From Actinomycetota bacterium (GTDB lineage: Bacteria > Actinomycetota > Geothermincolia > Fen-727 > Anoxymicrobiaceae), in the NCBI GenBank assembly GCA_018896525.1, contig JAHIMR010000054.1:1-34968 (forward strand): a DNA stretch of 34,968 bases. Direction: 5' to 3'. The notes beneath the pieces are model-generated. The model worked only from the letters and a program-made list of their open reading frames with translations. It did no database searches and was not told where the DNA came from. Shown here one piece after another: positions 7,077 through 34,769 of the stretch. How positions within the stretch are numbered: position 1 is the stretch's first letter; each line of letters starts with the position of its first letter. Made by a program: the position numbers and the translations under genes.

Positions 7077-7077
7077 C

Positions 7078-7125: not shown

Positions 7126-7143
7126 TTGTGGCATATGTGGCGG

Positions 7144-19432: not shown

Positions 19433-19660
19433 ATGCCGCCTGGAAGGCGGCTACCCCCACCTCAATCCTCCCCCGGGAACCCCCCCCCCATCCTAACCTT
19501 CCCCCAACCCCTAAGACCCCCCATCCCGGCCTTCCCCCCAGTGGGGGGAAGGAGCGGAGGGGGAAGGAAGGGTCAGGGGGGAAGGAGCGGAGGGAAAGGG
19601 AATGCCGGCAAGGTGCCGGCGCTACGGGGTGGGGGAGGGGGGTAAGACCTCATCACTCGG
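19433..19660. repeat. Low-complexity tract: ~95 bp poly-pyrimidine (C-rich) followed by ~110 bp poly-purine (G-rich), centred on the perfect palindrome CCTTCCCCCC-AGT-GGGGGGAAGG. It contains two direct copies of GGGGGGAAGGAGCGGAGGG and an embedded REP-like unit.
   Basis: Seen directly in the sequence. The C-runs give i-motif potential and the G-runs give G-quadruplex potential on the same strand. A 10-bp perfect hairpin core has imperfect extended complementarity. The tract lies 80 bp downstream of the flotillin stop. Confidence 0.6.
19600..19625. repeat. REP-like element (GAATGCCGGCAAGGTGCCGGCGCTAC)
   Basis: It matches the dispersed consensus and is embedded in the G-rich tract. Confidence 0.7.
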
Positions 19661-19787
19661 GGGATGCCCTCTCATACCAAAAGTACCGGTTTTTCAACCA
19701 TGTGGTTGACCAGTCTCGCGCCCTGTCATCCGACTCCATAAGTAGGAACTGAAATCGTGGCTGTGTGGATGGAAGGGGGTAGTTAAG

Positions 19788-20000
19788 ATGAGTCGCCGTG
19801 TACTGGTCATCATTATCTGCTCCCTGGTCCTGGCAGTATTAATCCTCTCGGCAAGCGCTGTCCAAGGCGAGGGTACATCTGTTTCGGTCAATATGACCAT
19901 GGCCAGGACGATACAGGTGGTGAACGGGGGCGAGTGCCGTTCGAACGTGCCGGTTGTTCGTCAGGTCTGCGGTGGGTTTGTTACTTTCATCTCCCGTTGA
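19788..20000 (+). CDS. Hypothetical small secreted protein (70 aa; signal peptide; two Cys)
   Basis: The N-terminus is MSRRVLVIIICSLVLAVLILSASAVQGE..., and the mature part contains ...GGECRSNVPVVRQVCGG... A GAAGGGGG RBS lies 8 nt upstream. It is convergent with the paralog cluster. There is no homology call, so it may be spurious. Confidence 0.35.
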   Translation: MSRRVLVIIICSLVLAVLILSASAVQGEGTSVSVNMTMARTIQVVNGGECRSNVPVVRQVCGGFVTFISR

Positions 20001-20044
20001 ACAACCTTCGGAGATCTAACTTGCCTGAACCCTGTTTGCGTTGT

Positions 20045-20998
20045 CTACTTTTCGCCCTTACTTTTCTTTCTCCGGCGCCCCACGAGCTTGAACAGTACGA
20101 ATAACACAGCGAGCGGGACAAGGAAGATGAGGAGCAGGGATGTCGGACAGGTGCTGAAACCGGCCGTCCCGGTCCTGGTGGTGTCAAGCTCCAACAGACT
20201 GGGCCCGTACCGGATGTCGACCTTGACGCTGTATGAGCCCAGCAGTGGAGGGTCGGGGATGACCCCCTGGTAGTACCGCTCGGAATCGGGCAATACGGTC
20301 ATCTCTTTCAGTTCCACCGTGCCGTGGCCCCACCCGAAGGAGGGAGTGTAGGTGAGCTTTCCCCTGATGGTGAGGTGTACGTTCCCCGTGTTCTTGAAGG
20401 CCACGCGATACTTCGGCGGTGACACGGGAAGTCGGAGGAGTTCTTTCGTGGGCCAGAACCACTTGCTCTCAACGGAGACCGATGTTATTTCACCTTCTCG
20501 CAGTATCTCTCCCGGGATGGTAATGAGTGCCAGGGAGGCTATCTGTATAACGTCGGTGCCGCGGTGGGACGTAGCGTCGGTGGTCTCCGGAACCTGCCGA
20601 AAGAGGACCGCCCCGAAGTGCCCCCCCGGCTCCGCGTCGGGCGGTGCGGTGGCGGTGAACCTGCTGACTACCCTCTGTCCCGCCGGCACCGTGAACTCCG
20701 GAACGTCGACGGAGAGCCATTTGGCACAGGAGTACGGGTAATGTCCCGGCTCCTCGAACACGCAGGTGCCTTCGGGCTTGACGTAGAAATCCATAAAATG
20801 GAGTGCAAGCCGCTGGTCCGCGGTGCCGCGGTTTTCGACGTAGATCTCAAACTCCCGCGAGGTGCCCGGTTCCATTGTGAGTTCGAACTTGACCGGGGAC
20901 ACGGCTACGTTGAACTCCTGGGCAACGGCGTGGAGCGCCGGAGCGAAACAGGAGATAACCAGAAATATGAATGCCGAAACTGCCGCTGTCTTTCTCAT
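20045..20998 (-). CDS. Cell-surface protein, paralog C of the cluster. It has a signal peptide, a beta-rich ectodomain and a C-terminal TM anchor (DUF916/DufA-like architecture). It lacks the acidic tail.
   Basis: It is 317 aa. The signal peptide is MRKTAAVSAFIFLVISCFAPALHAVAQEF. Conserved blocks shared with the 421- and 429-aa paralogs are FEEPGHY.YSCA.WLS, PPDAEPGGHFGA, NTGNVHLT..GKLTYTPSFGWG and GSYSVKVDIRYGPS. The C-terminal TM LLLIFLVPLAVLFVLF is followed by RRRKKSKGEK*. The conserved terminal motif survives only out of frame downstream (19987..20070). Confidence 0.8.
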   Translation of the reverse strand: MRKTAAVSAFIFLVISCFAPALHAVAQEFNVAVSPVKFELTMEPGTSREFEIYVENRGTADQRLALHFMDFYVKPEGTCVFEEPGHYPYSCAKWLSVDVPEFTVPAGQRVVSRFTATAPPDAEPGGHFGAVLFRQVPETTDATSHRGTDVIQIASLALITIPGEILREGEITSVSVESKWFWPTKELLRLPVSPPKYRVAFKNTGNVHLTIRGKLTYTPSFGWGHGTVELKEMTVLPDSERYYQGVIPDPPLLGSYSVKVDIRYGPSLLELDTTRTGTAGFSTCPTSLLLIFLVPLAVLFVLFKLVGRRRKKSKGEK

Positions 20999-21117: not shown

Positions 21118-22383
21118 TTATTTCTTTCGTCCCCTCTTGAACAACCTTCGGAGATTCAACTTGCCTGAACCCCGTTCGCGGAGTTTCTCTTTTTCCCCGG
21201 GCTCTTTCTGTCCCTCGTCGTCGATGTCGTCTTGCTCACCGCCATCGCCGGAATCCTCGTCCCCGGGTATTTCCTCTTTCTCGTCCTCCAACAGTTCGGC
21301 CCAGAGCTCCTCCAGTCGCGGTTCCTTCTCGCCCCTTTCTTCCTTCTCGCCCGCTTCCACTTCAGGCGCTTTTTTCTTTCGTATGAAGAATCTTACCAAC
21401 TTGACCGCAACGACAGGAAGCGAGATAAGGATGATGAGTGCCAGAAGGAGGAAGGCCGGGTAGACGTTGAAGGCGGCGGAACCGGTCTTAGAAGTATCGA
21501 ACTCGTACATATTGGGGCCGTACATGACTTCAACCGTTACATCGTAGGACCCAAGGAAAGGTGGATCCGGAAGGGTCCCCTCGTAGTATCTCTTAGTGTG
21601 GGGCAAAATCACCATTTCGGGAAGCTGGATAGACCCCATTCCCCAGCCGAAAGAAGGAGTGTAGTACAGCACCCCTTTGGTGGTAAGGTGCACGTTACCG
21701 GTGTTATTGACTACCACCCTGTACCCGGGTGACGACCCTCCGATTACCGGTATCTTCTTGGAAGGCCAGAACCACTCGCTCTGGACCGAAACCGACTCTA
21801 TCTCGCCCTCCCTTACTATTAACCCCGGAATGGTTACCAATACCAGGGCGCCAACCCTGCCGGTTGACCGCACCACCGTTTCACCTTCCACCTCCGGTTG
21901 TAGAATTACTTCAAAAAATATGATGGCGTTATGAGTTCCCGGTTCCGCGTCGGGTGGGACCGCGACCGAAAACGGTATCGTCTCTTCCCGGCCCGCGGGT
22001 AACTCGAACTCCTTTATTTCCGTAGTAATCCACCTCGCGCAGGAAAAGGAGTAATGGCCGGGTTCCTCGAACGAAGTCTTGTTGTCCGGCGTTACCGTGT
22101 AATCCATTTCATAGACTCTTAACCGCAGGTCATTGGTGCTCTTGTTCAACAAATTGATATCAAGAGCCTGGGTGGTGCCGGGTTCTATCGTAAGCTCGTT
22201 TATGGATGGCCATAGCTTGATATCGAATTCCTGCGCAAAGCAGGGCGGACAATGGATGCCGGAAAGCCCCAGCGCGATACTGAGCATTATGGTAATCAGT
22301 ACCGGTTTCTTGATTTTCATGAACAAAGAACAACCGGGACCATTTTGGTCCCGGTTGTTGGGCTTGTTCTTACTCGTAGCCAC
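21118..22383 (-). CDS. Cell-surface protein, paralog B. It has a signal peptide, a beta-rich ectodomain, a TM anchor, a poly-acidic cytoplasmic linker and the conserved terminal motif GSGKLNLRRLFKRGRKK.
   Basis: It is 421 aa. The N-terminal region is MATSKNKPNNRDQNGPGCSLFMKIKKPVLITIMLSIALGLSGIHCPPCFAQEF. The real start may be the internal Met (MKIKKPV...). It has the same conserved blocks as the paralogs. The TM is FLLLALIILISLPVVAV, followed by KLVRFFIRKKK. The E/D-rich linker is about 90 aa, and the terminus reads ...GEKEKLRERGSGKLNLRRLFKRGRKK. Confidence 0.85.
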   Translation of the reverse strand: MATSKNKPNNRDQNGPGCSLFMKIKKPVLITIMLSIALGLSGIHCPPCFAQEFDIKLWPSINELTIEPGTTQALDINLLNKSTNDLRLRVYEMDYTVTPDNKTSFEEPGHYSFSCARWITTEIKEFELPAGREETIPFSVAVPPDAEPGTHNAIIFFEVILQPEVEGETVVRSTGRVGALVLVTIPGLIVREGEIESVSVQSEWFWPSKKIPVIGGSSPGYRVVVNNTGNVHLTTKGVLYYTPSFGWGMGSIQLPEMVILPHTKRYYEGTLPDPPFLGSYDVTVEVMYGPNMYEFDTSKTGSAAFNVYPAFLLLALIILISLPVVAVKLVRFFIRKKKAPEVEAGEKEERGEKEPRLEELWAELLEDEKEEIPGDEDSGDGGEQDDIDDEGQKEPGEKEKLRERGSGKLNLRRLFKRGRKK

Positions 22384-22409: not shown

Positions 22410-22937
22410 CTAAATCGCGGTTACGGTATAGACCTGGGTCGGAGTTAAGACCGGGAAAGCATAGGGGCCAGCCCATATATTGAAATCTTTGCTCAGTTGG
22501 AAGTTGAAATCCCAGCTCTTGACCCCTCGGTCTCCGTGGGCGAGTAGGACACCCATGTTAGCCTGGAAGCCTCCGGTCGCGACATCGAAGGTGACACCGG
22601 CGGACGGATTATTCTGCAGGAACGTGAACTGAGTATCACCGATAGTCCGCCCTGCAGCGGTTCCGGATCCCGTAAGGATGGGCGTGGTTGTCAACGTGAA
22701 GTTCCACAGCGTGTTGCTCTTTATTGCCACCGCGGAGGTCATTGTCGCGGTGGTCACTGGATCCGTCGGTACGATAGCGCCAAAATCAATAGCGGTAGGA
22801 GTCATAGTGAAATTGAGAGTGGGGCTGTAGGTCGCGGTAACCGTAGGACTCGCTGTCTGCGCAAATCCTCCAACCCCCATAAACGCGATTAGAAGGACAC
22901 CCGCGACAGCACTTGCGATAATAAGCCTCTTCTTCAT
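22410..22937 (-). CDS. Small secreted Thr/Ala-rich beta protein (175 aa), cassette partner of paralog B. It may be a WxL-like or pilin-like surface protein.
   Basis: The N-terminus is MKKRLIIASAVAGVLLIAFMGVGGFAQTA (signal peptide). The mature part is Thr-rich (...AVAIKSNTLWNFTLTTTP...NIWAGPYAFPVLTPTQVYTVTAI). It shares the blocks AVxxKSNxxW and a C-terminal aromatic/W motif with the 166-aa protein at 24691..25191. The start ATG is at 22937, with a GGAGGTG RBS. The long ORF extends to 22964. Confidence 0.75.
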   Translation of the reverse strand: MKKRLIIASAVAGVLLIAFMGVGGFAQTASPTVTATYSPTLNFTMTPTAIDFGAIVPTDPVTTATMTSAVAIKSNTLWNFTLTTTPILTGSGTAAGRTIGDTQFTFLQNNPSAGVTFDVATGGFQANMGVLLAHGDRGVKSWDFNFQLSKDFNIWAGPYAFPVLTPTQVYTVTAI

Positions 22938-22994: not shown

Positions 22995-23170
22995 ATTGAT
23001 TATAACGGCACTTATGCTCAGCTGTTACTGTTTGAAGGTATTAAGGAACGAACCGGTCATATGAAGTAACGAATGTACCGTGACGGGGAACGAATGACCA
23101 AATGGGGGATAAGAATATATCACCCGATCGGGGGATGAATCCACTCTTTTCCTTGTTTTTCCCCCGAGTG
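22995..23170 (-). promoter_or_regulatory. Conserved cassette leader, copy 1. It has three direct repeats G[GT]AACGAA at 21-bp spacing (23044, 23065, 23086), symmetric elements (GGTCAT...ATGACC, CCGTGACGG, CATATG), and a degenerate GC palindrome followed by a T-rich tract.
   Basis: It is about 80% identical to 25320..25495. It lies 60-230 bp upstream of the small secreted gene at 22937. Confidence 0.5.
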
Positions 23171-23235: not shown

Positions 23236-24525
23236 TTATTCCTTTCGTCCCCTCTTGAACAACCTTCGGAGATTCAACTTGCCTGAACCCCGTTTGTGGA
23301 GTTTCTCTTTTTCCCCGGGCTCCTTCTGTCCCTCGTCCCCGTTGTCCTCCCGCTCCCCGGCGTCGCCGGAATCCTTTTCATCCTCCTCTGGTAGCACCTC
23401 TTCCTCGACTTCCTCCCCTTCAGATACCTCTTCTCCCCCGGCTTCTTCCTTCTCCTCTTCTTGCTCTTCTTCGGGTTCTTCTTCTGGTTTCTCCTCCCAG
23501 ATAGTCGAAAATGATGTCCAGGATCTCTCTTCTGGCTCCTCCTTTTCCACCTCTTCTTTCCCCGGTGCCTTCTTACCCCGCTTCCGCTTGATGAACACAA
23601 CGGTAGCAGCAATCACCCCCAAGAGGACCAGCACCAGAAGGATTGCCAGAATAGGGTACGAGTTAAATCCGCAACTCATGGTCTTGGTCGTATCAAACTC
23701 AAAGAGGCTGGGGCCGTAAGAGATTTCGGCCTTCAGCTTGTACGAGCCAAAAAGCGGCGGTTTCGGTATTTCTCCCTTAAAATTCCTGGTGGTCCCGGGT
23801 AGCACCGTCGTCTCGGGCAGGTCGATGGTGCCAACTCCCCAGCCGAAAGAGGGTCTATAGGTCAGCTTACCCATAATGGTGAGATGGACGTTCCCCTTGT
23901 TTTCAAAGACCACGCTGTAACGAGTCGGTGAACGGGGAAAAACAGGAAGCCGACGAGTTGGCCAGAGCCAGTTGCTGGTTGCCGAAACCGACTTTATTAC
24001 ACCATCGCGTACTATCTCCCCCGGAACGGTAATCAAGACCATTGCGGCGATGCGGGCTGAGACCTTTACGGGTTCCTCCGCTTCTTCGGGGGCGGCCTGC
24101 TGGAAGATTATAGCCCCGTAGTGCCCACCCGGTTCCGCTTCGGGCGGGACATGCAACCCGAAGGTCTTGGTCGCGCTACTGGTCTCCGCCGTACCGCGAC
24201 CAGGTAACGTGAGTTCGGGGGTCTCGGTGGAGAGCCAGGTAGCACACGAATAAGAGAAATGCCCGGGCTCTTCGTAGACGACAGTGTTGTCGGGCTTCAC
24301 GTAGTAGTCCATGAAGTAGACATCGAGAGCATGGCTCTTTTCGGTGAAGTTTTCAACAGTTATATCGAACTCACTGGAAGCACCCGGATCGGCGGTGAGC
24401 TCCAGCTTGGAGGGAGAAACTCTCACGTGGAACTCTTCCTGGGCGTAGGAGACGGTCGCCGGGAGCGAGATTGAAACGATGAGCGCCAGTAGCAGTGAAA
24501 GCGCGGCTTTTTTCATGGTCTTCAA
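23236..24525 (-). CDS. Cell-surface protein, paralog A. It has a signal peptide, a beta-rich ectodomain, a TM anchor, a poly-acidic cytoplasmic linker and the conserved terminal motif GSGKLNLRRLFKRGRKE.
   Basis: It is 429 aa. The signal peptide is MKTMKKAALSLLLALIVSISLPATVSYAQEEF. It has the conserved paralog blocks. The TM is ILAILLVLVLLGVIAATVVF, followed by IKRKRGKK. The acidic linker reads (EEKPEEEPEEEQEEEKEE...). The last ~80 nt are almost identical to the 3' end of paralog B. Confidence 0.85.
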   Translation of the reverse strand: MKTMKKAALSLLLALIVSISLPATVSYAQEEFHVRVSPSKLELTADPGASSEFDITVENFTEKSHALDVYFMDYYVKPDNTVVYEEPGHFSYSCATWLSTETPELTLPGRGTAETSSATKTFGLHVPPEAEPGGHYGAIIFQQAAPEEAEEPVKVSARIAAMVLITVPGEIVRDGVIKSVSATSNWLWPTRRLPVFPRSPTRYSVVFENKGNVHLTIMGKLTYRPSFGWGVGTIDLPETTVLPGTTRNFKGEIPKPPLFGSYKLKAEISYGPSLFEFDTTKTMSCGFNSYPILAILLVLVLLGVIAATVVFIKRKRGKKAPGKEEVEKEEPEERSWTSFSTIWEEKPEEEPEEEQEEEKEEAGGEEVSEGEEVEEEVLPEEDEKDSGDAGEREDNGDEGQKEPGEKEKLHKRGSGKLNLRRLFKRGRKE

Positions 24526-24690: not shown

Positions 24691-25191
24691 TCAGTTGCTG
24701 GCGGTATAGGTGTGACTACAGGTGTAGTTAGCGGCCACCTCGAGAAGCCACGCAGCCGCCGGCGTCAGGTCGACCTTGTAGGTGAACTGGCCGTCGAGAT
24801 AAGTTCCCCTTGCACCACTCAGGCATGTACCCGCGATGGTGGGGTATTGAAGGTTGGTGACTCCTGTAGCCCCAGTCGCAGTCGTGGTCAAAGTGAAGTA
24901 GGACGAGGGTATCGTATTTAGACCAGACGTCAGCAAGCCGCCCGTGCTCACCGTAACCGTCCAAGCAGCGTTACTCTTTACCGTTACCGCGAGAACATTG
25001 GTTTGCGAGGTGCCCGGGATAGCAGTAATGGCTGCGGTGCTGGGTATCGAGAATTCAAGCGCCGGGGCAATCCCAACAGTTGGCGTCACGGGGGCGGCTC
25101 CAGCCACCCAGGCTCCCATAAACATAGACAACACAAGCATTCCAACCAGTGTTACACCAGCCAATACGCAAAACTTATGTACCTTCTTCAT
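24691..25191 (-). CDS. Small secreted Thr/Ala-rich beta protein (166 aa), cassette partner of paralog A
   Basis: The N-terminus is MKKVHKFCVLAGVTLVGMLVLSMFMGAWVAGAAP (signal peptide). It contains ...AVTVKSNAAWTVTVSTGG...PAAAWLLEVAANYTCSHTYTASN. It is paralogous to 22410..22937. A GGAGGTGA RBS lies 7 nt upstream. Confidence 0.75.
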   Translation of the reverse strand: MKKVHKFCVLAGVTLVGMLVLSMFMGAWVAGAAPVTPTVGIAPALEFSIPSTAAITAIPGTSQTNVLAVTVKSNAAWTVTVSTGGLLTSGLNTIPSSYFTLTTTATGATGVTNLQYPTIAGTCLSGARGTYLDGQFTYKVDLTPAAAWLLEVAANYTCSHTYTASN

Positions 25192-25319: not shown

Positions 25320-25495
25320 CCATTACAACGGCACTTGCGTTCCGAGGGTGTAGTCCTTGAAGGCATTAAGGAACGAACAGGTCATATGAAGGAACGAACG
25401 TACCGTGACGGGGAACGAATGACCTCATGGGGTGATAAGAATTCATCCCCCAATCGGGGGATGAATCCACTCTTTTCCTTGTTTTCCCCCTTCTT
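25320..25495 (-). promoter_or_regulatory. Conserved cassette leader, copy 2. It has GGAACGAA x3 at 25370, 25391 and 25412 (21-bp period) and the 12-bp-stem palindrome GAATTCATCCCCC-AATC-GGGGGATGAATCC (25439-25468) with flanking T/U-rich runs.
   Basis: Seen directly in the sequence. It aligns with 22995..23170. It lies 130-300 bp upstream of the small secreted gene start at 25191. Confidence 0.5.
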
Positions 25496-25520
25496 GAGCG
25501 CGGGCGTCGGCCCGCGTCCG

Positions 25521-25588
25521 GGGAACGGTTGCCGGCGGGATGCCGGCGCTACGGAAAACGGGGAATGCCGGCAAGGTGCCGGCGCTAC
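25521..25588. repeat. Two tandem REP-like units, 8 bp from the stop of the 1643-aa gene
   Basis: The units are GGGAACGGTTGCCGGCGGGATGCCGGCGCTAC and GGAAAACGGGGAATGCCGGCAAGGTGCCGGCGCTAC. They sit in the same position relative to the gene 3' end as the 6-unit array at 812-1024. Confidence 0.8.
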
Positions 25589-25596
25589 AAGGGGAG

Positions 25597-28500
25597 CTAT
25601 TCCCCGTATCCACCGATGGTGCAGGTTCCCGCTCCCCGGTCGTTCCAGTACATGGCCCGCTCGGCCATTATCTTCGCTCCAGCGGTCTTGCAGGTAACCA
25701 CTATAGCGGCCTGGCCGTCGGGAATCTCGTCCGCCATGTTGAAGGTGGCACGGGAACCGGCGGCAACCGTGGCGGTGAAGGTGGCGTTATTGGTGCCGTC
25801 GGGTGTCAGGTAGGTTACCTCCACCTCCACGGCGGTATCGTTGGGGTTGGCCACCAGGGTGTACGTCTCGTGCCCGTCAGCGGTCTTCCCGTCGGGCAGG
25901 TAGAACGTGGTGTGGGGCCCGGCCAGGCCCACGGTGTCGTGGGACGCCTCTCCCAGGGGTGTGTCGGCTCCCCAGTACATTGCCCTCTCGGCGACTATCG
26001 GTTTGTCGGCGCTCACGGCAATGGAGAAGTCGGTGTCGGGGAGTACGTCGTTGACCCTTATGGTCTCCCTGGAGTCCGGTGGCATTTTGAACGGGGGCTG
26101 GGGCACCGGTCCCCCGCCGGTCATGTAGGTGACGGTCACCCGCGCCTCGCTGTCGCCCGGGTTCTGTACCAACAGGTAGGTCTCAAAGCCGTGGGCGCAT
26201 GTGCCCTCGGCCAGATAGTAGTCGGTCTCGGGGGTGGTCGCCCCGATTGAGTCGTGGCCCTCCCGCCTGCTGTTCCGGTACATGCTCCTCTCGGGGATTA
26301 CGGGCAAGTCGGAGTCCACCTTGATGGAGGCGTTCCTCTGCCCGATGTCATCCGCCATGTTGTAGGTGGCCCGGGAGTTGGCCGGTATCTTCTTCTCGAA
26401 CGTCTTCGACTCGGCCGCGCCGGTGGCGTCCTCCCCTGTCATGTAAGTGACCTGGCAGGTCGCATCGGTGTCGTTGGGGTTCTGTACGAGCAGCCAGGTC
26501 TCGAAGCCGTAAGCGCTGCACCCCTCGGGGAGGTACCAGGTCTCCGCGGGGGCGTTCACCCCTATCGAGCAGTGGCCGTCAGGGGAGAGTGCTCCCTGGC
26601 CGGTCCACCACATGGTGCGGTCCACCGCTATCGCCTTTCCCTCGGCGCAGACGACCCGGCATGAGAAGTCGGTCTCGAACGGTAGGTCGTTCGCCGGGGC
26701 TACGGACGTCTGGGAGAGGGCGGGCAGCAGGAGCGGGTCCCTCTGTACCGGGCCGTCGGGGGTCATGTAGGTGACGTCTGCGGTAACGTCCTCGTCGTTG
26801 GGGTTCATCAGTGTTATGTAGGTGTTGAAGCCCCAGGCGGTGGTGCCCTCGGCCAGGTACCAGCGCGAGAGTTCGGATGGTTCTTCTCCCGGAAGAGCTA
26901 CCACGAACCGGGACAAGCCCCCCACTTCCGCTGTCAACCTGTCGGCCTCGGTGTCCCTGCTCTTTGTGCGATCGACCCAGCTTCCGCTCTCTTCATGGAG
27001 TATCACCAGTCGGGATTCCTCTTCCGGTGATAAGCCGGAATCAGGGTAGGACAGGGTGACCCTGACGTTTCCACTGTATGTCGCGGTGGTCGAGACGTCC
27101 CGGCAGGTTCCCCGGACCACCAGGTAGCCGCCTGTCCCGGGGTCCGGCTTCTCGTCCGAGGTGGTGATTCCCGCGGAGGTAACCCGGTCAAACTCGACCG
27201 TTGTGGCTGAATCGGGGTTTACCTTGACGCCGGTTCCCTCGGGGGTGTTTACAACGGCGAAACCACCGGCAAGGGCGCGGGGCGTTTCGTTCCCGGATAC
27301 CAGGTTCACATCCCGTCCCCCCAGGGACGCGTTTGGCGAGATGGTGATGTTAGCGGTTGCTTTGTCAGGTTGGATATCTTTTATGTAGTTGACCGCTATC
27401 CCCTCTCCGAAGCCGGCCTGGCCCGAGAGGTCGAAGTGGGTTTCATTTCCTTCAATGATGACATCCCCGGTCCAGCCGGGCAGGCCGTACGAGGCTTCAG
27501 TGCCGGTAATAGCCGGGTCGGGGCCCACCATGAAGCCACCCGCCAGGGGGACTGCCTCCTCGGCACCGGTCACCACGCTGATGTCCCGCGGCCCCCGGGC
27601 GGCATAGGGATCGATGGTGATCTGGACACGGAGTTTGGTGTAGTCAAAAATCTGGAGGCTGCCCGGGACAACGGCAATACCTTCCCCGAAATCGACAACG
27701 CTGGAACCGTTGAAGTGTGTATACGCTCCAACCACCTCCACCGTCATGGTCTGGCCGGGATTTCCCCAGGTAGGATAACAACGCTTGATGAACGGCGGGT
27801 CGCAGTACAGGATCGTGCCGCCGTCTCCAACCGCCCAGATGTTGCTGGTGTCGAAGCCGTCGACGCCGTTGAGTTGCACCGTTACCGGACTCTCCTGGGG
27901 GGCCCATGCAGAGCCGTTGTAGAAGAGTATGGTGCCGCCGTCGCCCACAGCCCAGACGTGGGTGCCGTCCACGGCGGACACGCCGCGCAGGGTGACGGTT
28001 GTTCCGCTCGCCTGGGGGGTCCAGTTGGTCCCCCCGTCGGAGGTGTACAGGATGGTGCCGCTGGCCCCCACCGCCCATACTATGGAGGTTGAGAGGGCCC
28101 GGACCCCGTGGAGGTTGGCGGTGGTGCCGCTGGTCTGGCTGCCCCAGGCAACGCCGTCCGTCGTCCTATATATCCTGCCCTCGTTGCCCACCGCCCAGAC
28201 GTAGAGGGTGGAGGCGGCGGAGACCGCGTTCAGGGGCCTGTCGGTGATGTCGTCGTACTGTTTAGACCAGGTACCAGCAGGAGGAGGGGTTTTCCAGAGC
28301 CAGATGTTTCCTATCGAGGTGACATCCCAGATACGGTTGGTCGCCGGGGCCGTCACCCCGGTGTTGGATTCGCCGGCGGAGGTCGCCTTGAGGGCCCACG
28401 TGCTTCCGTTGAAGTAGAGGTCCTCGCCCCTCGACAGGGACGGGTTCCACCCCACCGCCCAGGCGAAGGTCGTGTTGACGGCGGAGACGGCGTTCAGGTT

Positions 28501-30459
28501 GACGGCGGTGGGGCAGGACTGTGGTGTCCACGTCTCGCCGCCGCTGGACGTGTACTGTATGGCGCTGTTGTCGCCCACCGCCCAGACCACGTCCGTGCTC
28601 AAGGCGTCCACGCCCCGGAGGTTCTCGGTGGTCCCGCCGGAGAGCGCGGACCAGGCAGAGCCGCCGTTGAAGAGGGCGGTGCCGGCGTCCCCCACCGCCC
28701 AGGCGCTGTTCGCGTCAAAGGCGGAGACGCCGCGCAGGGCCACGGCCGTGCCGCTGGCCTGCGGTCCCCAGCTCGTGCCGTTGTAGTGGCGTATGGTGCC
28801 GTTCGCCCCAACCGCCCATACACAGTTGGCGGCGGCCGCGCTCACGGCGTTCAGGTTCACAGCGGTCCCGCCGTCCTGCACGCTCCAGGAGGTTCCGTCG
28901 AAGAACAGGACGGTGCCGGTGTCTCCCACCGCCCAGACGTGGGTGCTGTCCACGGCGGACACGCCGCGCAGGGTCACGGCCGTTACGCTCGCCTGGGAGG
29001 CCCAGTTGGCCCCCCAGTCGGAGGTGTACAGGATGGTGCCGCCGGCCCCCACCGCCCAGGCGCTGCCGGTGGAGAGGGCGCTTACCCCGTAGAGGTTCTG
29101 CGCGGTGCCGCTCGCCTGGGTGCCCCAGTTGGTGCCGCCGTTGGCGGTGTAGCGTATCATTCCGGTCGCCCCCACCGCCCACACGTGGCTGGTATCCAGC
29201 GCGACGATATCGTAGAGCGGGTAGTCTATGTTCAACTGGGTGGTCCAGCTAACGCCGTCCCACTTGTATATCCACCCGTCCTCGTCCACAATCCACACGC
29301 TGTTGCTGGCCGCGGCAGCGACGCTGACTATCGAGTAGCCTGTCAGGGTCGCGCGCAACGACCACGAACCGCCATAATACCGCAAGACCTCCCCTCGCGT
29401 CAGTGCCGCGTTCCAGCCGACCGCCCAGGCCTCGTCCGCGCTTACCGAGTCCACGTCCAGGATGTTGGCGGTGGTGCCGCTGGCCTGTTCGGTCCATCCC
29501 CCTCCGCGGGAGAAGAGGAACTTTTCCGAGCCCACGGAGTAGACATGGGTGGAATCCAGGGCACAGACATCGTATAAGTCCTGGGTGGTGCCGGAGGGCT
29601 GTTCGGTCCAGGACACGCCGTTATAGTAACTGATCTTTCCGTCCCATCCCGATACCCAGACATTGCTGTTGCTCAGGGCGGAGATGTTTACGGGCCAGTA
29701 ATCATAAAGTCCGGTACTTTCCCAGGTCACTCCTTTGTTGCTGGACTTGAGAACCTCGCCCCACCAGGTTATGGACCAGATGTCATTAGCGCTGCAGGCC
29801 GAGACCATGTAAGGGTCGTGGTCATCGGGACCTCCACCCGGATTTACCACCTGCCAGCTGGTACCGTTGTAGTAGTGGGTCTCACAGTCCACGGCCCAGA
29901 CGTTGTTCGCGTCATAACCGGAGATATCCACCAGCCCGCCGGAAGGGTAGGTGTACTGAACGCTCCAGGAAGTACCGTTATAGGCGAGGATCGTCGCGTT
30001 CGTAAAACCGTTGGAGTCACACACGGCCCAGACGTACGGGGTTCCAGGGGCCAATTGCGGGGTGGCCCAGACCGCCTCCAGGTCATATGCGGTGACGCCT
30101 ATTCCCTGCTTGCTCCAGCTGGTTCCGTTGTAGTACAGGATGGTGCCGGCCTCGCCAACCGCCCACACGTTAGTCGCGTCAAGGGCGTGGACGCCATTCA
30201 GGTTATAGGTTGAGCTGCTGTACTGCCGCCCGAGAGTGGTTCCGTTGTAGAAAAGAATAGCTCCACCAGCCCCTACGGCCCAAACATGTGTTGAGTCGGC
30301 CGCGGACACGCTGCCACTGTACTGTCCTTCGGGAAGGGGGTTCTGCTTTATCCAGGTGTAGTCGTCCCCGGCAAGGCATTCCGCGCTCATCGAGAATATA
30401 AGCGCGATGGTGATTATCGCTGCCAGGACCACAAGGCCCCTTCGATGCGCACCCATCAT
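25597..30459 (-). CDS. Giant secreted surface protein: about 21 BNR/Ycf48-like beta-propeller blades (probably three 7-bladed propellers), Ig-like/IPT domains, and 4-5 C-terminal repeats of the shared module
   Basis: The signal peptide is MMGAHRRGLVVLAAIITIALIFSMSAECLAG. A GGGAGAG RBS lies 7 nt before the ATG-ATG at 30459. The longer ORF extends to 30528. The blades read ...VWAVG..GTILYTSDGGTNW..Q.SGT...L.GVSA.D..... The C-terminal repeats (WYLAEGTTAWGFNTYITLMNPN...) are about 75-80% nt-identical to the 3' end of the subtilase gene. The protein ends ...ERAMYWNDRGAGTCTIGGYGE. Confidence 0.85.
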   Translation of the reverse strand: MMGAHRRGLVVLAAIITIALIFSMSAECLAGDDYTWIKQNPLPEGQYSGSVSAADSTHVWAVGAGGAILFYNGTTLGRQYSSSTYNLNGVHALDATNVWAVGEAGTILYYNGTSWSKQGIGVTAYDLEAVWATPQLAPGTPYVWAVCDSNGFTNATILAYNGTSWSVQYTYPSGGLVDISGYDANNVWAVDCETHYYNGTSWQVVNPGGGPDDHDPYMVSACSANDIWSITWWGEVLKSSNKGVTWESTGLYDYWPVNISALSNSNVWVSGWDGKISYYNGVSWTEQPSGTTQDLYDVCALDSTHVYSVGSEKFLFSRGGGWTEQASGTTANILDVDSVSADEAWAVGWNAALTRGEVLRYYGGSWSLRATLTGYSIVSVAAAASNSVWIVDEDGWIYKWDGVSWTTQLNIDYPLYDIVALDTSHVWAVGATGMIRYTANGGTNWGTQASGTAQNLYGVSALSTGSAWAVGAGGTILYTSDWGANWASQASVTAVTLRGVSAVDSTHVWAVGDTGTVLFFDGTSWSVQDGGTAVNLNAVSAAAANCVWAVGANGTIRHYNGTSWGPQASGTAVALRGVSAFDANSAWAVGDAGTALFNGGSAWSALSGGTTENLRGVDALSTDVVWAVGDNSAIQYTSSGGETWTPQSCPTAVNLNAVSAVNTTFAWAVGWNPSLSRGEDLYFNGSTWALKATSAGESNTGVTAPATNRIWDVTSIGNIWLWKTPPPAGTWSKQYDDITDRPLNAVSAASTLYVWAVGNEGRIYRTTDGVAWGSQTSGTTANLHGVRALSTSIVWAVGASGTILYTSDGGTNWTPQASGTTVTLRGVSAVDGTHVWAVGDGGTILFYNGSAWAPQESPVTVQLNGVDGFDTSNIWAVGDGGTILYCDPPFIKRCYPTWGNPGQTMTVEVVGAYTHFNGSSVVDFGEGIAVVPGSLQIFDYTKLRVQITIDPYAARGPRDISVVTGAEEAVPLAGGFMVGPDPAITGTEASYGLPGWTGDVIIEGNETHFDLSGQAGFGEGIAVNYIKDIQPDKATANITISPNASLGGRDVNLVSGNETPRALAGGFAVVNTPEGTGVKVNPDSATTVEFDRVTSAGITTSDEKPDPGTGGYLVVRGTCRDVSTTATYSGNVRVTLSYPDSGLSPEEESRLVILHEESGSWVDRTKSRDTEADRLTAEVGGLSRFVVALPGEEPSELSRWYLAEGTTAWGFNTYITLMNPNDEDVTADVTYMTPDGPVQRDPLLLPALSQTSVAPANDLPFETDFSCRVVCAEGKAIAVDRTMWWTGQGALSPDGHCSIGVNAPAETWYLPEGCSAYGFETWLLVQNPNDTDATCQVTYMTGEDATGAAESKTFEKKIPANSRATYNMADDIGQRNASIKVDSDLPVIPERSMYRNSRREGHDSIGATTPETDYYLAEGTCAHGFETYLLVQNPGDSEARVTVTYMTGGGPVPQPPFKMPPDSRETIRVNDVLPDTDFSIAVSADKPIVAERAMYWGADTPLGEASHDTVGLAGPHTTFYLPDGKTADGHETYTLVANPNDTAVEVEVTYLTPDGTNNATFTATVAAGSRATFNMADEIPDGQAAIVVTCKTAGAKIMAERAMYWNDRGAGTCTIGGYGE

Positions 30460-30639
30460 GCCAACTCTCCCTGCCCCCGGCATGGGGGCTTGCCTCCCTG
30501 CCCCGTTCAAAGGCGCCACCCAGACCATTCGTTGCTTCTATTATAGACTATATCGGTTGCTTCCGCTGTTATCTGTAACCTATAACGGCCGTGGGCCCTT
30601 TGCGGATACCCCCCGGCGAGTCTCCCACCCCATAGCACC

Positions 30640-30790: not shown

Positions 30791-30983
30791 ATTGGCAAGG
30801 TCCTGGCGAGGGAGGGCGCCCAGTCCGTCTCCGTTTGGAAACGTGCCTCGCCAAACACGCCGTCGGCGTTGTATCCTATGGATGCGAGATGAAGTTGCTC
30901 CCGTGGGATTGTCGTGGGAACTGGAGGTGCCTGTGGCTGATTCACCAGGTAGTACGATAACCGCCCAGGAGAAGATAGAAGAG

Positions 30984-31277
30984 ATGGTGCGTCGTATCGT
31001 CGGTCAGTTCGACCCGGAGAGTATCATCCTCTTCGGCTCTCATGCCCGGGGGACCGCTGGGCCTGACAGCGACGCGGATTTGCTGGTCGTAATGAACGTC
31101 AAGGGCTCCCGCAGGGAGAAAGCCACCGAGATCGATGTTGCGCTGGTGGGAGTAGGCCTTCCCAAAGACCTTATCGTTGTTACGCCAGACGATGTTGAGA
31201 GGAGCCAGGACCGGGTAGGGACTATCATACACGCGGCTCTGCAGGAGGGAACGGTGCTCTATGAGCGGAGAGCCTGA
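30984..31277 (+). CDS. Minimal nucleotidyltransferase (MNT), the antitoxin of a HEPN/MNT module
   Basis: It contains ESIILFGSHARGTAGPDSDADLLVV, the GS...D.D motif of the Pol-beta NTase fold. It overlaps the downstream HEPN gene by 17 nt. The start is the ATG at 30984, with an AGGAG RBS upstream. The ORF extends to 30792. Confidence 0.8.
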   Translation: MVRRIVGQFDPESIILFGSHARGTAGPDSDADLLVVMNVKGSRREKATEIDVALVGVGLPKDLIVVTPDDVERSQDRVGTIIHAALQEGTVLYERRA

Positions 31278-31677
31278 GAGCACCCATACTGTTGTGCAAT
31301 GGATCGAGAAAGCGGAAAATGACCTCAGAAACGCTGAGTATACACTCACGCTCCAGGACAACTGCCCGTTCGACACGATCTGCTTTCACGCGCAGCAATG
31401 CGCCGAGAAGTATCTGAAAGGGCTTCTCTTCTTTCTTTCAATTTCTTTCCCAAAAACACATGACCTCGAAGCGTTGACAAGCCTGGTGCCAGACGATATC
31501 TCACTTGGGTTGGACATGGGCGCCGTCTTGTCTTTGAACCGCTATACGATCGAGGCGCGCTACCCGGGTGACTGGGAGCCAATTGCGAGAACTGAAGCCG
31601 AGAATGCCGTCGACGTCGCCCGGAGGGTCCGTGAGGCGGTCAGGAACAACCTCCCGGATGAGATAACAGGCCGGTAG
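31261..31677 (+). CDS. HEPN-domain protein, the toxin partner of the MNT
   Basis: It is 138 aa. It has a HEPN-like helical bundle with the ...IEARYPGDW... motif region. Its N-terminus is WIEKAENDLRNAEYTL. It is coupled translationally to the MNT gene. Confidence 0.8.
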   Translation: MSGEPESTHTVVQWIEKAENDLRNAEYTLTLQDNCPFDTICFHAQQCAEKYLKGLLFFLSISFPKTHDLEALTSLVPDDISLGLDMGAVLSLNRYTIEARYPGDWEPIARTEAENAVDVARRVREAVRNNLPDEITGR

Positions 31678-31875
31678 TTTCCTTCGTCTCGCTGGTTCCT
31701 TCAGAGCGTGGATTCCCTCGCTTTTTCTATTGACTTGCCTGCTCTGCTTGTGTTACTATCTGCTTGTATTGCTATCCTCTCCTCCTCTCCAGAAGGCTGG
31801 TGGGTCATCCCCGACGCTTTCGTCCGTCCCCCGGTGGGGATGGGAACCGGGACTGTTCCCCGGGAGTGCCGGTTT

Positions 31876-31898
31876 GTAGCGCCGGCAACTTGCCGGCA
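31876..31898. repeat. REP-like element in inverted orientation (GTAGCGCCGGCAACTTGCCGGCA)
   Basis: It is the reverse complement of the consensus TGCCGGCAAGTTGCCGGCGCTAC. It lies about 60 bp upstream of the Flp pilin gene. Confidence 0.7.
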
Positions 31899-31955
31899 AT
31901 CAACGTGGCCGACAAGCCGCCCGGAAGGCGGCGCGAAGAGAAAGGAGACCGGCAG

Positions 31956-32132
31956 ATGGAAGAGATAAAGCGGCTGATTCGTGAGGAGGAGGCCCAGACC
32001 ACCGCCGAGTACGCGCTGGTGATACTGGGGGCGTCGGCGGTAGCCGGAGCGCTCATCGCCTGGGCGGCGGGCGGAGAAGCGATAAAGGGCTTCTTCACCA
32101 AGATCTTCGACAAGCTCACCAGCGGCCTGTAG
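31956..32132 (+). CDS. flp: Flp/Fap-family type IVb pilin (Tad pilus major subunit)
   Basis: The 58-aa product is MEEIKRLIREEEAQTTAEYALVILGASAVAGALIAWAAGG... The G/Q-TT-EY prepilin processing motif is followed by a hydrophobic helix. An AAAGGAG RBS lies 8 nt upstream. The 122-aa ORF in the track is a 5' extension. Confidence 0.8.
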   Translation: MEEIKRLIREEEAQTTAEYALVILGASAVAGALIAWAAGGEAIKGFFTKIFDKLTSGL

Positions 32133-32140
32133 GAGATGCC

Positions 32141-32668
32141 TTGTACGGGGTAGTGTCGCTGGTCATACTGGTCGCGTTCTGCCTGGCGGCGATGTACGTC
32201 GACGTGCGCCGGGGCAGGATCCCCAACCTCTTGAACGCCACCGGCTTCATGGCGGGAGTCCTGCTGGCCTGCATCACCGATGGCACGAAGGGCCTGGCGG
32301 GAAGCCTTTCCGGGTCGCTTCTGGGGCTGTCGATCCTGCTCCCGCCGTTCCTTCTTCACATGGTGGGCGGTGGCGACGTCAAGTTCCTTGCCGCGTCGGG
32401 AGCGATCGTCGGGTGGCACGTGCTGTGGGTTTCCTTCCTTGCCGGGGCCACCCTTGGAGGGCTGACGGGGATTGCCCTGCTCGTCGCCCGCGACCGCTCT
32501 ATCGAGCGGCTCCTCGCGCGCTTCGTCCTGCTGAAGGCGGGGCTCCAGCGGAAGCAATCGATCGTGCCCCGTTCAATCGCCGGGACGTGCGCCCACACGC
32601 GGATGCCGTATGCGGTCCCCCTGTCCGCGGGGCTCATCGCCGTGTCCTCGATAACTCTATTGATGTAA
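32141..32668 (+). CDS. cpaA: Prepilin peptidase CpaA/TadV (A24 family)
   Basis: The 175-aa polytopic membrane protein has DVRRGRIPN and GGGDVKFLAA motifs, the two catalytic Asp regions of TadV/CpaA. It starts at TTG, and an AGGAG RBS lies 5 nt upstream. Confidence 0.75.
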   Translation: MYGVVSLVILVAFCLAAMYVDVRRGRIPNLLNATGFMAGVLLACITDGTKGLAGSLSGSLLGLSILLPPFLLHMVGGGDVKFLAASGAIVGWHVLWVSFLAGATLGGLTGIALLVARDRSIERLLARFVLLKAGLQRKQSIVPRSIAGTCAHTRMPYAVPLSAGLIAVSSITLLM

Positions 32669-32712
32669 GGGTGTTCGGTTTGAAGACGAAGCGGCGTCGG
32701 CACAGTAGGCGC

Positions 32713-33102
32713 ATGACGAGAGGTGGCTCGCCGGGCCAGGCAACGGTGGAATTCGCCCTGGTTCTGCCCACGCTCCTTATTGTGGTGGTAGCGGTCTGCC
32801 AGGTCGCCATTGCCCTGAACTGTTACCTGGTGGTCACCTCCTCCAGCCGCGAAGGCGCGCGGCGTGGTGCCGAGACCAACGACGTCGAGGAGGCCCGCGG
32901 GGCCGCGCTCGACGCATCCGCCGGCCTCCCCGGGGACCCACCCGGCGTTGATGTCGGCTTTCCCGAGGGGAGGTCCAAGGGCTCACCGGTGAAGGTTACA
33001 GTCACTTACCGTATGCCTCTTCTCCTGCCGGGGATCAGCCACCTCATAGGTGAGCCATCGTTTAGCGGCTCCACCTCCATGGCGCTGGAGAGGGATGATT
33101 GA
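32713..33102 (+). CDS. tadE: TadE-like pseudopilin
   Basis: It contains GQATVEFALVLPTLLIVVVAVCQVAIAL, the TadE N-terminal processing motif plus TM. In-frame alternative starts are a GTG at 32671 and a TTG at 32680. Confidence 0.7.
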   Translation: MTRGGSPGQATVEFALVLPTLLIVVVAVCQVAIALNCYLVVTSSSREGARRGAETNDVEEARGAALDASAGLPGDPPGVDVGFPEGRSKGSPVKVTVTYRMPLLLPGISHLIGEPSFSGSTSMALERDD

Positions 33103-33945
33103 ATGAGAGCGCCCGGACGCCTCATCCGAGACCAGCGGGGCAGCGTGACCATACTCATGATCGCCTGCCTGTTCCTGGTGCTGTCGCTTTGCCTTCTCAC
33201 AGTCGACATCGGCCTCTACCTCACCGCGCGCCACCGGGCCCAGAACGCCGCCGACGCCGCCTCCCTCGCCGCGGTCCAGCAATCGTTTCCCCTGTTCGGC
33301 ACCGGGCAGCAACCGGAGGCCGCCGCCTCGAAGATCGCCGGGGCCAACGGCGCGACTCTCGAGATGATAGAGGTCTCGGACGGCGGCTCTCACGTGGAGG
33401 TCGAGGTGTCGGTGAGGCCTGGATCACTGCTGCTTCGCGGTATGGGGGTGGGTCCTGAGAAGGCGACCGCCCGGGCGGCGGCGGAAGTCGACATCGAAGC
33501 CCTGCTGGCCAGCAACCGGATATGGTACACAATGGATCCAACCGCGCTGGCCGGCCTCAGGTCGTTCCTCTCCCGCAGGGGTTCGGAGAGCTTCTCGAGC
33601 GTTTCCACGATGGTATCGCTGCTCTCCCTTCAGCACCTCGGCAAGCCGTACGTGTGGGGCGCCACCGGGCCGAACTACTTCGACTGCAGTGGGCTGGTCT
33701 GCTATGTATACGCGCAGATAGGCGTGCGCCTGCCAAGGGTCACCCACTCGCAGGTCCGTGTCGGCCGCGCGGTCCAGGCCGTCGAGCTCGCCCCCGGCGA
33801 CCTGGTCTTCTTCAGGGGGAACAGGCACGTGGGGATATACCTGGGCGGCGGCTGTTACGTGCACGCCCCCCGCACAGGGGACGTGGTGAAGGTGTCGCAG
33901 CTTGGCTCCCGGTCGGACCTGTCCGCCTGCAGGCGGGTGATTTGA
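33103..33945 (+). CDS. Fusion protein: TadE/G-like N-terminal pilus-assembly domain plus a C-terminal NlpC/P60 (C40) peptidoglycan endopeptidase
   Basis: The N-terminus is RGSVTILMIACLFLVLSLCLLTVDIGLYLTARHRAQNAADAASLAAV, a Tad_N-like TM segment. The C-terminus is GKPYVWGATGPNYFDCSGLVCYVYAQIG....GDLVFF.GNRHVGIYLGGGCYVHAP, with the Cys-His-His triad of NlpC/P60. Confidence 0.8.
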   Translation: MRAPGRLIRDQRGSVTILMIACLFLVLSLCLLTVDIGLYLTARHRAQNAADAASLAAVQQSFPLFGTGQQPEAAASKIAGANGATLEMIEVSDGGSHVEVEVSVRPGSLLLRGMGVGPEKATARAAAEVDIEALLASNRIWYTMDPTALAGLRSFLSRRGSESFSSVSTMVSLLSLQHLGKPYVWGATGPNYFDCSGLVCYVYAQIGVRLPRVTHSQVRVGRAVQAVELAPGDLVFFRGNRHVGIYLGGGCYVHAPRTGDVVKVSQLGSRSDLSACRRVI

Positions 33946-34049
33946 GCATCCCCGGATCGCGATACCCTCCACTCTTGAGTGCGCCTACCCGCATTCCTGG
34001 ACCGCGACTGAAATCGTCCCTCGAGGAGACCGGTGAGGCACTGTTCAAT

Positions 34050-34069
34050 TGATATCACATATGATATCA
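34050..34069. promoter_or_regulatory. Operator-like element TGATATCA-CATA-TGATATCA, two copies of a self-palindromic octamer, overlapping the 5' end of hicA
   Basis: Seen directly in the AT-rich sequence. HicB-type antitoxins autoregulate through such palindromes. Confidence 0.4.
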
Positions 34070-34092
34070 TCTACAAGGAAGGGTTGCCGGTT

Positions 34093-34338
34093 GTGACAAA
34101 CGTCAGGAAGGTAGTAGGCAAGGCCTGCGACTCACCACAAAACCTTAGGTTTCGAGAATTGCAGACTCTAATAACAGAGGTTGGGGGTTACACTCTGGAC
34201 CACGTGGATGGCAGTCATTGGCATTACAAGCTTGATGGCTATCTGCCAATAGGTATCACGTACTCCAGAGGACATGCATATGTCTATGAAGTCAGGGAAG
34301 TTGTAAAGATGTTCAAGCAGAGGGAGTGGATACGATGA
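34093..34338 (+). CDS. hicA: HicA-family toxin (mRNA interferase)
   Basis: It contains ...LRFRELQTLITEVGGYTLDHVDGSHWHYK..., the HicA G-SH motif on a dsRBD-like fold. A GTG at 34093 with an AAGGAAGGG RBS gives 81 aa. The ORF extends to 34033. The local GC is only about 45%. Confidence 0.65.
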   Translation: MTNVRKVVGKACDSPQNLRFRELQTLITEVGGYTLDHVDGSHWHYKLDGYLPIGITYSRGHAYVYEVREVVKMFKQREWIR

Positions 34339-34748
34339 AGGATGTTGATTATTACATGGAGCTCAATTACGAGGTGAACATAGAACCAACCCCTGAAGGT
34401 GAATACTTCGCGACAGTCCCTGATCTGCCCGGATGCATGGCCACAGCGAAGACCAGAGATTCGGCTCGGGTCTCAATTGAAGAGGCAAAATATGGTTGGT
34501 TCAAAGTCGCACTCAAGAGCAATGTTGAGATCAAAGAACCTCCCATTGAAAGGCAATACAGCGGAAGGATACTGTTTCGGACAAGCCCCGCCATACACCG
34601 GTTTCTTGTAGAGGAATCCAAGAGAAGCGGGCTCACTCTCAACACGTACCTCAACGTCCTCTTGACGCAGAATCGTTGCCTTCTCGACAGGCAAGCCATT
34701 GAGAAAACCATATCCCGATCGGCCGCGTCAATAGAGACCACCACTTGA
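34335..34748 (+). CDS. hicB: HicB-family antitoxin (RNase-H-like N-domain plus C-terminal RHH-like DNA-binding tail)
   Basis: It contains EGEYFATVPDLPGCMATAKTRDSARVSIEEA and the C-terminal GRILFRTSPAIHRFLVEESKRSGLTLNTYLNVLL. The ATG at 34335 overlaps the hicA stop (ATGA). An AGGGAGTGG RBS lies upstream. Confidence 0.8.
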   Translation: MKDVDYYMELNYEVNIEPTPEGEYFATVPDLPGCMATAKTRDSARVSIEEAKYGWFKVALKSNVEIKEPPIERQYSGRILFRTSPAIHRFLVEESKRSGLTLNTYLNVLLTQNRCLLDRQAIEKTISRSAASIETTT

Positions 34749-34769
34749 GGGGCGACTCTCCTGTCGCCC
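34749..34769 (+). terminator. GC hairpin GGGCGAC-TCTCCT-GTCGCCC immediately after the hicB stop. No clear U-tract follows.
   Basis: Seen directly in the sequence. Because the T-run is absent, its function as an intrinsic terminator is uncertain. Confidence 0.3.

Follow-up and report, generated by a model that had tools for sequence, protein, structure and literature searches.

We have analysed a conserved element of about 170 nt that occurs twice in a 34,968-nt stretch of DNA from an uncultured actinobacterium (the whole of this stretch is called the window below). Each copy carries three octamers in direct repeat with a period of exactly 21 bp, and these arrays are predicted to be the operator of a LytTR-family response regulator that would activate operons for surface proteins; we assign this reading a probability of about 0.7. 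The operator is of a known class, closest to the triple-repeat type of RcoM and CoxC, and no new mechanism is involved. What appears to be new is that the triple-repeat type is combined with a regulator of the classical receiver-LytTR kind, and that it is found in an uncultured actinobacterial clade ahead of surface-protein operons.

The genes around the element are all on the minus strand, in the order giant gene, copy A, 166-aa gene, 429-aa gene, copy B, 175/184-aa gene and two paralogs of the 429-aa gene. The main features are as follows; distances are given from the predicted transcription start.

25597-30528, minus strand: giant DUF5719/BNR protein of 1643 aa, upstream of copy A
25412-25419, minus strand: copy A repeat 1 (distal), TTCGTTCC, centred at about -100.5
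25391-25398, minus strand: copy A repeat 2, TTCGTTCC, centred at about -79.5
25370-25377, minus strand: copy A repeat 3 (promoter-proximal), TTCGTTCC, centred at about -58.5
25322-25331, minus strand: copy A CCGTT and -10-like TGTAAT (25327-25322), where the homology of copies A and B stops
24691-25191, minus strand: 166-aa secreted protein with signal peptide, predicted to be driven by copy A
23236-24525, minus strand: 429-aa WxLIP-like protein, next after the 166-aa gene
23087-23094, minus strand: copy B repeat 1, TTCGTTCC
23066-23073, minus strand: copy B repeat 2, TTCGTTAC, the A variant
23045-23052, minus strand: copy B repeat 3, TTCGTTCC, centred at about -56.5
23028-23023, minus strand: copy B -35-like GTAACA, with an 18-nt spacer to the -10
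22999-23008, minus strand: copy B CCGTTATAAT, with a perfect -10, TATAAT (23004-22999)
22410-22937, minus strand: 175-aa secreted protein, start MKKRLII per gene calls (the ORF extends to 22964, 184 aa), predicted to be driven by copy B
21118-22383 and 20045-20998, minus strand: WxLIP-like paralogs after the 175-aa gene

On the plus strand copy A has GGAACGAA at 25370, 25391 and 25412, and copy B has GGAACGAA at 23045 and 23087 and GTAACGAA at 23066. These positions confirm the preliminary description of the DNA, which had reported three octamers at exact 21-bp spacing and a second copy. Since every gene here is on the minus strand, the functional reading of the octamer is TTCGTTCC; in this gene sense both copies are three TTCGTT(C/A)C octamers, preceded by the hairpin and followed by the small genes. 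The element then reads as an A-rich tract, the hairpin, the three octamers with their 13-nt spacers, TTAATRCCTTCAA, 18-20 variable nucleotides and AAGTGCCGTT(A/G)TAAT; beyond this -10-like end the 5'-UTR is unrelated and leads through a Shine-Dalgarno sequence to the ATG. The window holds 7 octamers against 1.5 expected, and 5 octamer pairs spaced at 21 bp (with up to 3 mismatches) against 0.37 expected; none of 100 shuffles contained 5 such pairs.

The block common to the two copies (25322-25490 and 22999-23168) is identical at 147 of 170 positions (86%). The 5'-UTRs of the copies cannot be aligned, the upstream flanks have diverged and the downstream proteins share 31% identity over 91 aa, so that conservation of the element lies well above that of its flanks. 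The preliminary description had named the opposite outcome, a longer duplication with no elevated conservation, as grounds for doubting a regulatory role. Its proposal of a dedicated regulatory unit ahead of each cassette is supported, with the direct repeats as the conserved, functional-looking part.

Homologs of the window proteins are labelled Candidatus Geothermincolia. Further contigs were sampled through homologs of the cassette proteins, and later of the LytTR regulator, because pattern scans of genome and metagenome collections were uninformative. A scan of the genome collection for TTCGTTNC-N13-TTCGTTNC-N13-TTCGTTNC gave at least 120 matches; those listed are coding tandem repeats of 21 or 63 nt or chance occurrences in unrelated taxa, and none of those listed resembles the element by blastn or profile, the pattern being too permissive. 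The metagenome collection, scanned with an invariant 20-mer, gave a single match to an unrelated terminator hairpin; this collection evidently does not contain the lineage, since the JGI contig L004 was not returned.

Protein-anchored sampling produced eight more arrays, at loci L006, L134/L135, L136, L139, L137/L138 (two arrays), L141-L143 and L144. The hosts are contigs of related, Geothermincolia-like Actinomycetota, and the ten arrays represent seven or more lineages in a sample anchored on cassette homologs, in which the arrays of window copy A, L006 and L139 are close relatives and not independent. Each further array is located upstream of a gene for a small secreted protein, and in most loci a WxLIP-like gene comes next. 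TTCGTT(C/A)C octamers are kept in all ten arrays, repeat 2 is TTCGTTAC in 8 of the 10, and every one of the 20 spacers is exactly 13 nt long, with no indels. Array orientation is constant, as is the distance to the -10 and to the downstream gene. What lies within the spacers is variable, and neither the two palindromes nor the GGTCAT/ATGACC arms escape this drift: L134 has substitutions at the central base of CCGTCACGG and at one base of TCATATGA, neither palindrome is recognisable in L136, L137, L141 or L144, and outside the window copies the GGTCAT arm is confined to L006 and L139.

Scored with an nhmmer profile of the array, the family members reach 26-52 bits, and 120 control loci, chosen for three TTCGTTNC at 21 bp, no more than 22 bits. 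Run over about 1.1 Mb of sequence, the window and related loci included, the profile found no further copy; regulons can be mapped with it throughout the clade. Some homologous cassettes (L005/L007, L129 and L131) have no array, and the array is thus a separable regulatory module.

Downstream of the repeats, CCGTT is invariant in the ten arrays at 36-39 nt past repeat 3, with a TAnnnT-like hexamer right after it. The hexamer after CCGT was taken as the -10 and start positions were derived from it. Its agreement with TATAAT is 3-6 of 6 positions and is perfect in copy B and L139. With this assignment the repeat centres fall near -100, -79 and -58, repeat 3 lying at -58.3 +/- 1.1; the gap between repeat 3 and the -10 differs by up to 3 bp, so that helical phasing is not strictly kept. 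The best -35 match to TTGACA at 16-19 nt spacing averages 2.8 of 6 positions over the ten promoters, against 2.65 for random sequence. From a recognisable -10 and no usable -35 we infer an activator-dependent promoter; activation rather than repression is thus a prediction from the promoter sequence, as are the transcription starts. The 5'-UTRs range from 18 to 124 nt among the arrays. Promoters of ECF type (GGAAC-N16-CGTT), sigma-54 type and FliA/WhiG type were considered by eye and rejected, since no -35 partner is consistent over the ten promoters.

CCGTT 5' of a -10 hexamer also occurs at 30579-30588 (minus strand), about 60 nt upstream of the ATG of the giant gene, and at L005 1076-1085, in an array-less promoter of the orthologous small gene. 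The motif may be a core-promoter or sigma-specific extended -10 element, or a proximal contact for the regulator. The L005 gene itself (1156-1665) encodes an 87%-identical ortholog of the 166-aa protein; its promoter is a different one and its context differs as well, with an FhaA/FhaB/PP2C/FtsW division cluster adjoining.

Several inverted features accompany the repeats in the window.

25499-25516: GC hairpin CGCGGGC-N4-GCCCGCG, between the giant gene and the element, 3' of REP-like repeats
25441-25466: copy A hairpin with an 11-13-bp stem, -28.9 kcal/mol, z -2.9 (fold against shuffles)
25328-25343, minus strand: GGAACGCAAGTGCCGT, an inverted copy (13/16) of repeat 2 and its flank, in copy A and L006 only (L006 about 263-278)
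23120-23138: remnant of the hairpin in copy B, z -0.96, no better than shuffles

The nested palindrome, the GGTCAT...ATGACC arms and the GC stem that the preliminary description had reported are all present in copy A, as the CCGTGACGG palindrome, a GGTCAT arm at 25380-85, an ATGACC arm at 25418-23 and the hairpin at 25441-25466. As parts of the element the palindromes and arms did not hold up; they are not conserved beyond close relatives and so do not belong to the core. Together with the hairpin they are best regarded as lineage-specific extras. GGAACGCAAGTGCCGT abuts the -10 and overlaps the -35 and spacer region; it is absent from the remaining arrays, and either an additional operator or a chance resemblance would account for it.

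The A-tract 5' of the copy A hairpin on the minus strand is a T-run 3' of it on the plus strand, and a terminator scan calls the hairpin on the plus strand with this T-run; the gene-sense tail is only TTCTTAT. In copy B the 3' arm has three changes that are not compensated, and the hairpin is absent from the distant arrays L134, L137 and L144. The earlier suggestion of a terminator or insulator is therefore plausible for copy A and does not extend to the element in general; in copy A the hairpin is likely to serve the preceding giant gene from outside the conserved core, and to be dispensable.

The REP-like repeats next to the GC hairpin are 36-bp units (TGCCGGCAAGrTGCCGGCGCTACrGGGAACGrGGGA) with an internal GCCGGC..GCCGGC hairpin. 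In the window they are found at 816-1032 (6 tandem copies), 6496-6532, 19598-19634 and 25525-25597 (2 copies), and elsewhere at about L134 6962-6990 and L139 2750-2775. They directly follow large genes on the 3' side, in some places as tandem copies with no spacer between them, and the unit appears to be a clade-specific repetitive extragenic palindrome.

Two explanations would do without a DNA-binding regulator. If the conserved block were transcribed as a cis-regulatory leader RNA, in the manner of a riboswitch or attenuator, the hairpin and arms would be its RNA structure, and copy A, with its strong hairpin, a 16-nt inverted repeat and a fold better than shuffles (z -3.5), looks the part. 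For copy B the fold is no better than that of shuffles (z -0.8), its mutated hairpin arm is uncompensated, and the hairpin, arms and palindromes are all missing from distant arrays. An Rfam search gave no match at gathering thresholds or at E<=1, and RNAalifold found zero conserved base pairs in the ten copies. This lack of Rfam and RNAalifold support, the decayed hairpin, the end of A/B homology at the -10-like hexamer and the unrelated UTRs of variable length beyond it favour a DNA site, in the form of a promoter with an upstream operator, and make a leader RNA extremely improbable.

The copies could also be a neutral remnant of segmental duplication or gene conversion in which the octamers have no function or, in a variant of this idea, serve as recombination substrates for swapping or deleting cassettes. 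The copies are indeed direct repeats 2.3 kb apart that flank one cassette, and the element stays similar while the cassette proteins are highly divergent: at L006 (419-913) the small protein is 58% identical to the product of 24691-25191 and the upstream element 88%. Against neutrality, octamers, spacer lengths and CCGTT are kept where the neighbouring proteins are 40-55% identical and the spacer sequences have diverged, and the fixed orientation and distances noted above point the same way. We consider this explanation very unlikely; recombination between the copies could still occur as a side effect. An invertible promoter was rejected, as flanking inverted repeats common to both copies never exceed 11 nt.

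The candidate regulator comes from the related loci. At L137/L138 a 249-aa protein with receiver and LytTR domains is encoded directly upstream of two arrays; it matches PF04397 with 77.8 bits (cutoff 22.6), and its alignments to the BtsR and LytR models run over the full length. Orthologs with 54-56% identity are found in an equivalent position in GCA_018896015.1 (L141-L143) and GCA_054640755.1 (L144, Candidatus Geothermincolia), where the array lies within the spacer that separates the regulator from the small gene. A Response_reg+LytTR gene adjoins the array in these three independent loci. The regulator genes have sigma70-like promoters of their own (e.g. TTGACG-17-GATAAT and TGGTATAAT), without an array. 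At L141 the gene preceding the regulator encodes a 906-aa hybrid histidine kinase (receiver, four PAS, HisKA and HATPase_c domains); this is the only locus with a kinase adjacent to the regulator. For at least 10 regulator homologs the longest contig is identical in size to that of cassette homologs; this is a proxy for co-location and suggests that linkage of LytTR regulator and cassette is frequent.

The preliminary description had advised looking for a regulator nearby or co-occurring, and one is present upstream of the array in these relatives. In the window tblastn found no regulator of any kind, a LytTR ortholog was not traced through NCBI accession blocks in the four MAGs that hold this contig, and no LytTR gene lies within 10 kb of the array in 4 of the 7 array-bearing lineages. 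In this genome the LytTR protein is thus a putative binder, proposed from the loci of relatives.

A stand-alone 138-aa receiver-domain protein is encoded beside the cassette at L139 (6192-6608, minus strand) and L140 (3072-3488, minus strand). L139/L140 is the closest syntenic relative of the window, and by tblastn this protein is missing from the corresponding 400-nt gap of the window (19646-20044). A conserved 70-aa gene adjoins cassettes on the opposite strand in five loci: the window (19788-20000, plus strand), L141 (6955-7167), L144 (12843-13055), L136 (11103-11315) and L139 (6691-6903). Its product has a signal peptide and a short conserved mature region (..RSNVPV.RQ..G.FITFV..), with no family match, and could act as a secreted peptide or as a small component of the surface. 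It was rejected as a regulator, the 19788-20000 homolog being a secreted peptide and not a DNA-binding protein; the ORF at 19433-19645, also considered as a homolog of this gene, is a low-complexity artefact.

With octamers separated by exactly 13 bp, the three repeats fall on one face of the helix, and one-face direct repeats upstream of a promoter with a weak -35 suit any class-I-type activator. The binder might then belong to another family, either the OmpR/PhoB-type winged-helix regulators, as the preliminary description had proposed, or the AraC/XylS-type dimers. OmpR/PhoB winged-helix regulators use half-sites about 10-11 bp apart, and the half-sites of AraC/XylS-type dimers are about 21 bp apart. 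The arrays have a strict 21-bp period and no 10-11-bp half-sites: among the ten, no half-period motif between the octamers (GlnR- and PhoP-like motifs included) is conserved or in fixed register. Neither a Trans_reg_C (PF00486) gene nor an AraC-family gene appears in the gene tables of the sampled loci, where it is the LytTR regulator that abuts the array, three times independently; and three 8-bp repeats with 13-bp spacers have a direct LytTR precedent (PMC11347149). That the window itself encodes no regulator, and that L139/L140 have a stand-alone receiver protein near the cassette, speak for another activator, which we nevertheless hold to be unlikely. Of the earlier claim, the response-regulator site survives, with a response regulator as the best, putative, candidate binder; its assignment to the OmpR/PhoB family probably does not.

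The products of the cassettes provide some clues about the function of the presumed regulon. An AlphaFold model of the 429-aa protein (pLDDT 80.6) consists of a signal peptide, two beta-sandwich domains, a transmembrane helix and a disordered tail of acidic character. It is closest in the PDB to the Enterococcus faecium WxLIP structures 9i1y and 9i25 (E 6e-11 to 1e-10), which are WxLIP free and WxL-bound, and next to chaperone-usher chaperones; the TM-scores to WxLIP are modest (0.45-0.47, normalised to target length). The protein has the two Ig-like domains and C-terminal anchor by which WxLIP proteins are recognised, and Pfam WxLIP_PGBD is present in some of its homologs. On the strength of these fold matches and homologs the cassettes appear to be the actinobacterial equivalent of WxL/WxLIP surface complexes, the small protein being a putative partner. 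As in WxL/WxLIP loci of Firmicutes, a gene for a small secreted partner is followed by one for an anchored WxLIP-like protein; unlike them, the host belongs to the Actinomycetota and the small proteins have no WxL family match. The 166-aa and 175-aa proteins have no match in Pfam or NCBIfam, WxL included, and the structure model of the small secreted protein is unusable (pLDDT 39.8). These small proteins diverge far faster than their promoter or signal peptide. As far as titles and abstracts show, no paper retrieved by a literature search ties LytTR regulation to WxL loci, and the two co-mentions are unrelated.

The window is otherwise dominated by four very large secreted proteins, all on the minus strand (1033-4716, 7144-11268, 11429-13801 and 25597-30528), with DUF5719, BNR/YCF48-like and TIG-like internal repeats at periods of 117-336 nt. 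Similar giants lie beside cassettes in L131, L137, L141 and L144. At about 30900-34750 (plus strand) there is a set of Tad/Flp-type pilus genes, comprising a DUF4244 Flp-like pilin, a Peptidase_A24 prepilin peptidase, TadE and a Tad/NlpC-P60 protein, alongside a HEPN/nucleotidyltransferase pair and a HicB-like antitoxin; the L134 cassette is flanked by those Tad genes too. In L136, phage-like genes (an Amidase_2 endolysin, a holin and large structural-looking ORFs) at 1-8700 stand directly upstream of the array cassette, which suggests a prophage or tailocin as its neighbour.

Taken as a LytTR operator, each copy would control, from upstream, a minus-strand promoter that depends on an activator, and its octamers near -100, -79 and -58 would be bound by a response regulator with a LytTR DNA-binding domain. 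Phosphorylation of the receiver, for which one relative has an adjacent PAS-domain histidine kinase, would lead to binding of an oligomer to the repeats; once bound, the regulator would bring RNA polymerase to, or shift it on, a core of CCGTT and TAtAAT that lacks a usable -35. With the operon on, the small secreted protein and the membrane-anchored WxLIP-like protein may form a complex at the cell surface. The scheme provides a testable chain, from sensor kinase through LytTR regulator and triple-repeat operator to surface-protein operon, in a lineage known only from metagenomes, and it suggests that WxL/WxLIP-like surface complexes occur beyond the Firmicutes and under signal-dependent control. 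A bolder extension, which we regard as speculative and quite unlikely, is an orphan LytTR regulon of peptide cell-cell signalling in deep-branching uncultured Actinomycetota; the 70-aa peptide (19788-20000) would be the signal precursor, fast-diversifying WxL/WxLIP-like complexes under constant promoters would be the outputs, and CCGTT would be a fourth, polymerase-proximal contact of the regulator.

LytTR operators are defined by direct or inverted repeats of about 8-11 nt with spacers of 10-13 nt and a period of about 20-22 bp (PMC4847170, PMC11347149); typical sites have 9-11-nt repeats and 11-13-nt spacers, with no universal consensus (PMC4847170). Three 8-nt repeats with 13-nt spacers lie within this definition in both repeat size and spacer length. 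LytTR activators mostly bind upstream of the -35 (PMC11347149).

Among receiver-LytTR regulators, the sites of the AgrA/ComE/PlnC and BtsR/YpdB types are likewise direct repeats with 11-13-nt spacers (PMC4227749, PMC4847170). The proximal AgrA repeat is centred near -60 and AgrA promoters are sub-optimal (PMC4227749), and the arrays would resemble this type in a proximal repeat predicted near -60 (-58.3 +/- 1.1, computed from the predicted -10 and start) and in a sub-optimal core promoter that would need an activator. Those sites have two repeats of 9-11 nt, and here there are three of 8 nt. Many of those systems also autoregulate and form an operon with the kinase and a peptide signal; here array-less promoters of their own precede the regulator genes, and a kinase is adjacent once.

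AlgR of Pseudomonas aeruginosa, another LytTR regulator, binds the 9-mer CCGTTCGTC (PMC4064291), which shares the core GTTCGT with the array octamer (G-TTCGTT-M-C). This resemblance covers six bases and may be coincidental. Full activity of algD requires three AlgR sites, and the structures under AlgR control, type IV pili and alginate, belong to the cell surface (PMC4064291). Unlike the tight 21-bp array, its sites are scattered (-470, -394 and -45) and in mixed orientations (PMC4064291).

The closest precedent is provided by RcoM1 and CoxC, whose sites have three 8-bp repeats, TTCNNGCA, with 12-13-bp spacers (PMC11347149). The likeness lies in three imperfect 8-bp direct repeats that start with TTC and are evenly spaced; CoxC binding needs all three repeats, and RcoM1 activates from a site upstream of the -35 (PMC11347149). 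The repeat itself differs, TTCGTT(C/A)C here and TTCNNGCA there, and the CoxC site, unlike what is predicted for the arrays here, overlaps the -35 and represses. RcoM1 and CoxC sense through PAS-haem or MHYT domains and have no phospho-receiver, unlike the LytTR regulator described here, and their target is CO dehydrogenase, where the arrays stand ahead of surface-protein genes. The triple 8-bp-repeat LytTR operator, so far associated with the CO sensors RcoM and CoxC, would thus extend to a receiver-type regulator in the Actinomycetota.
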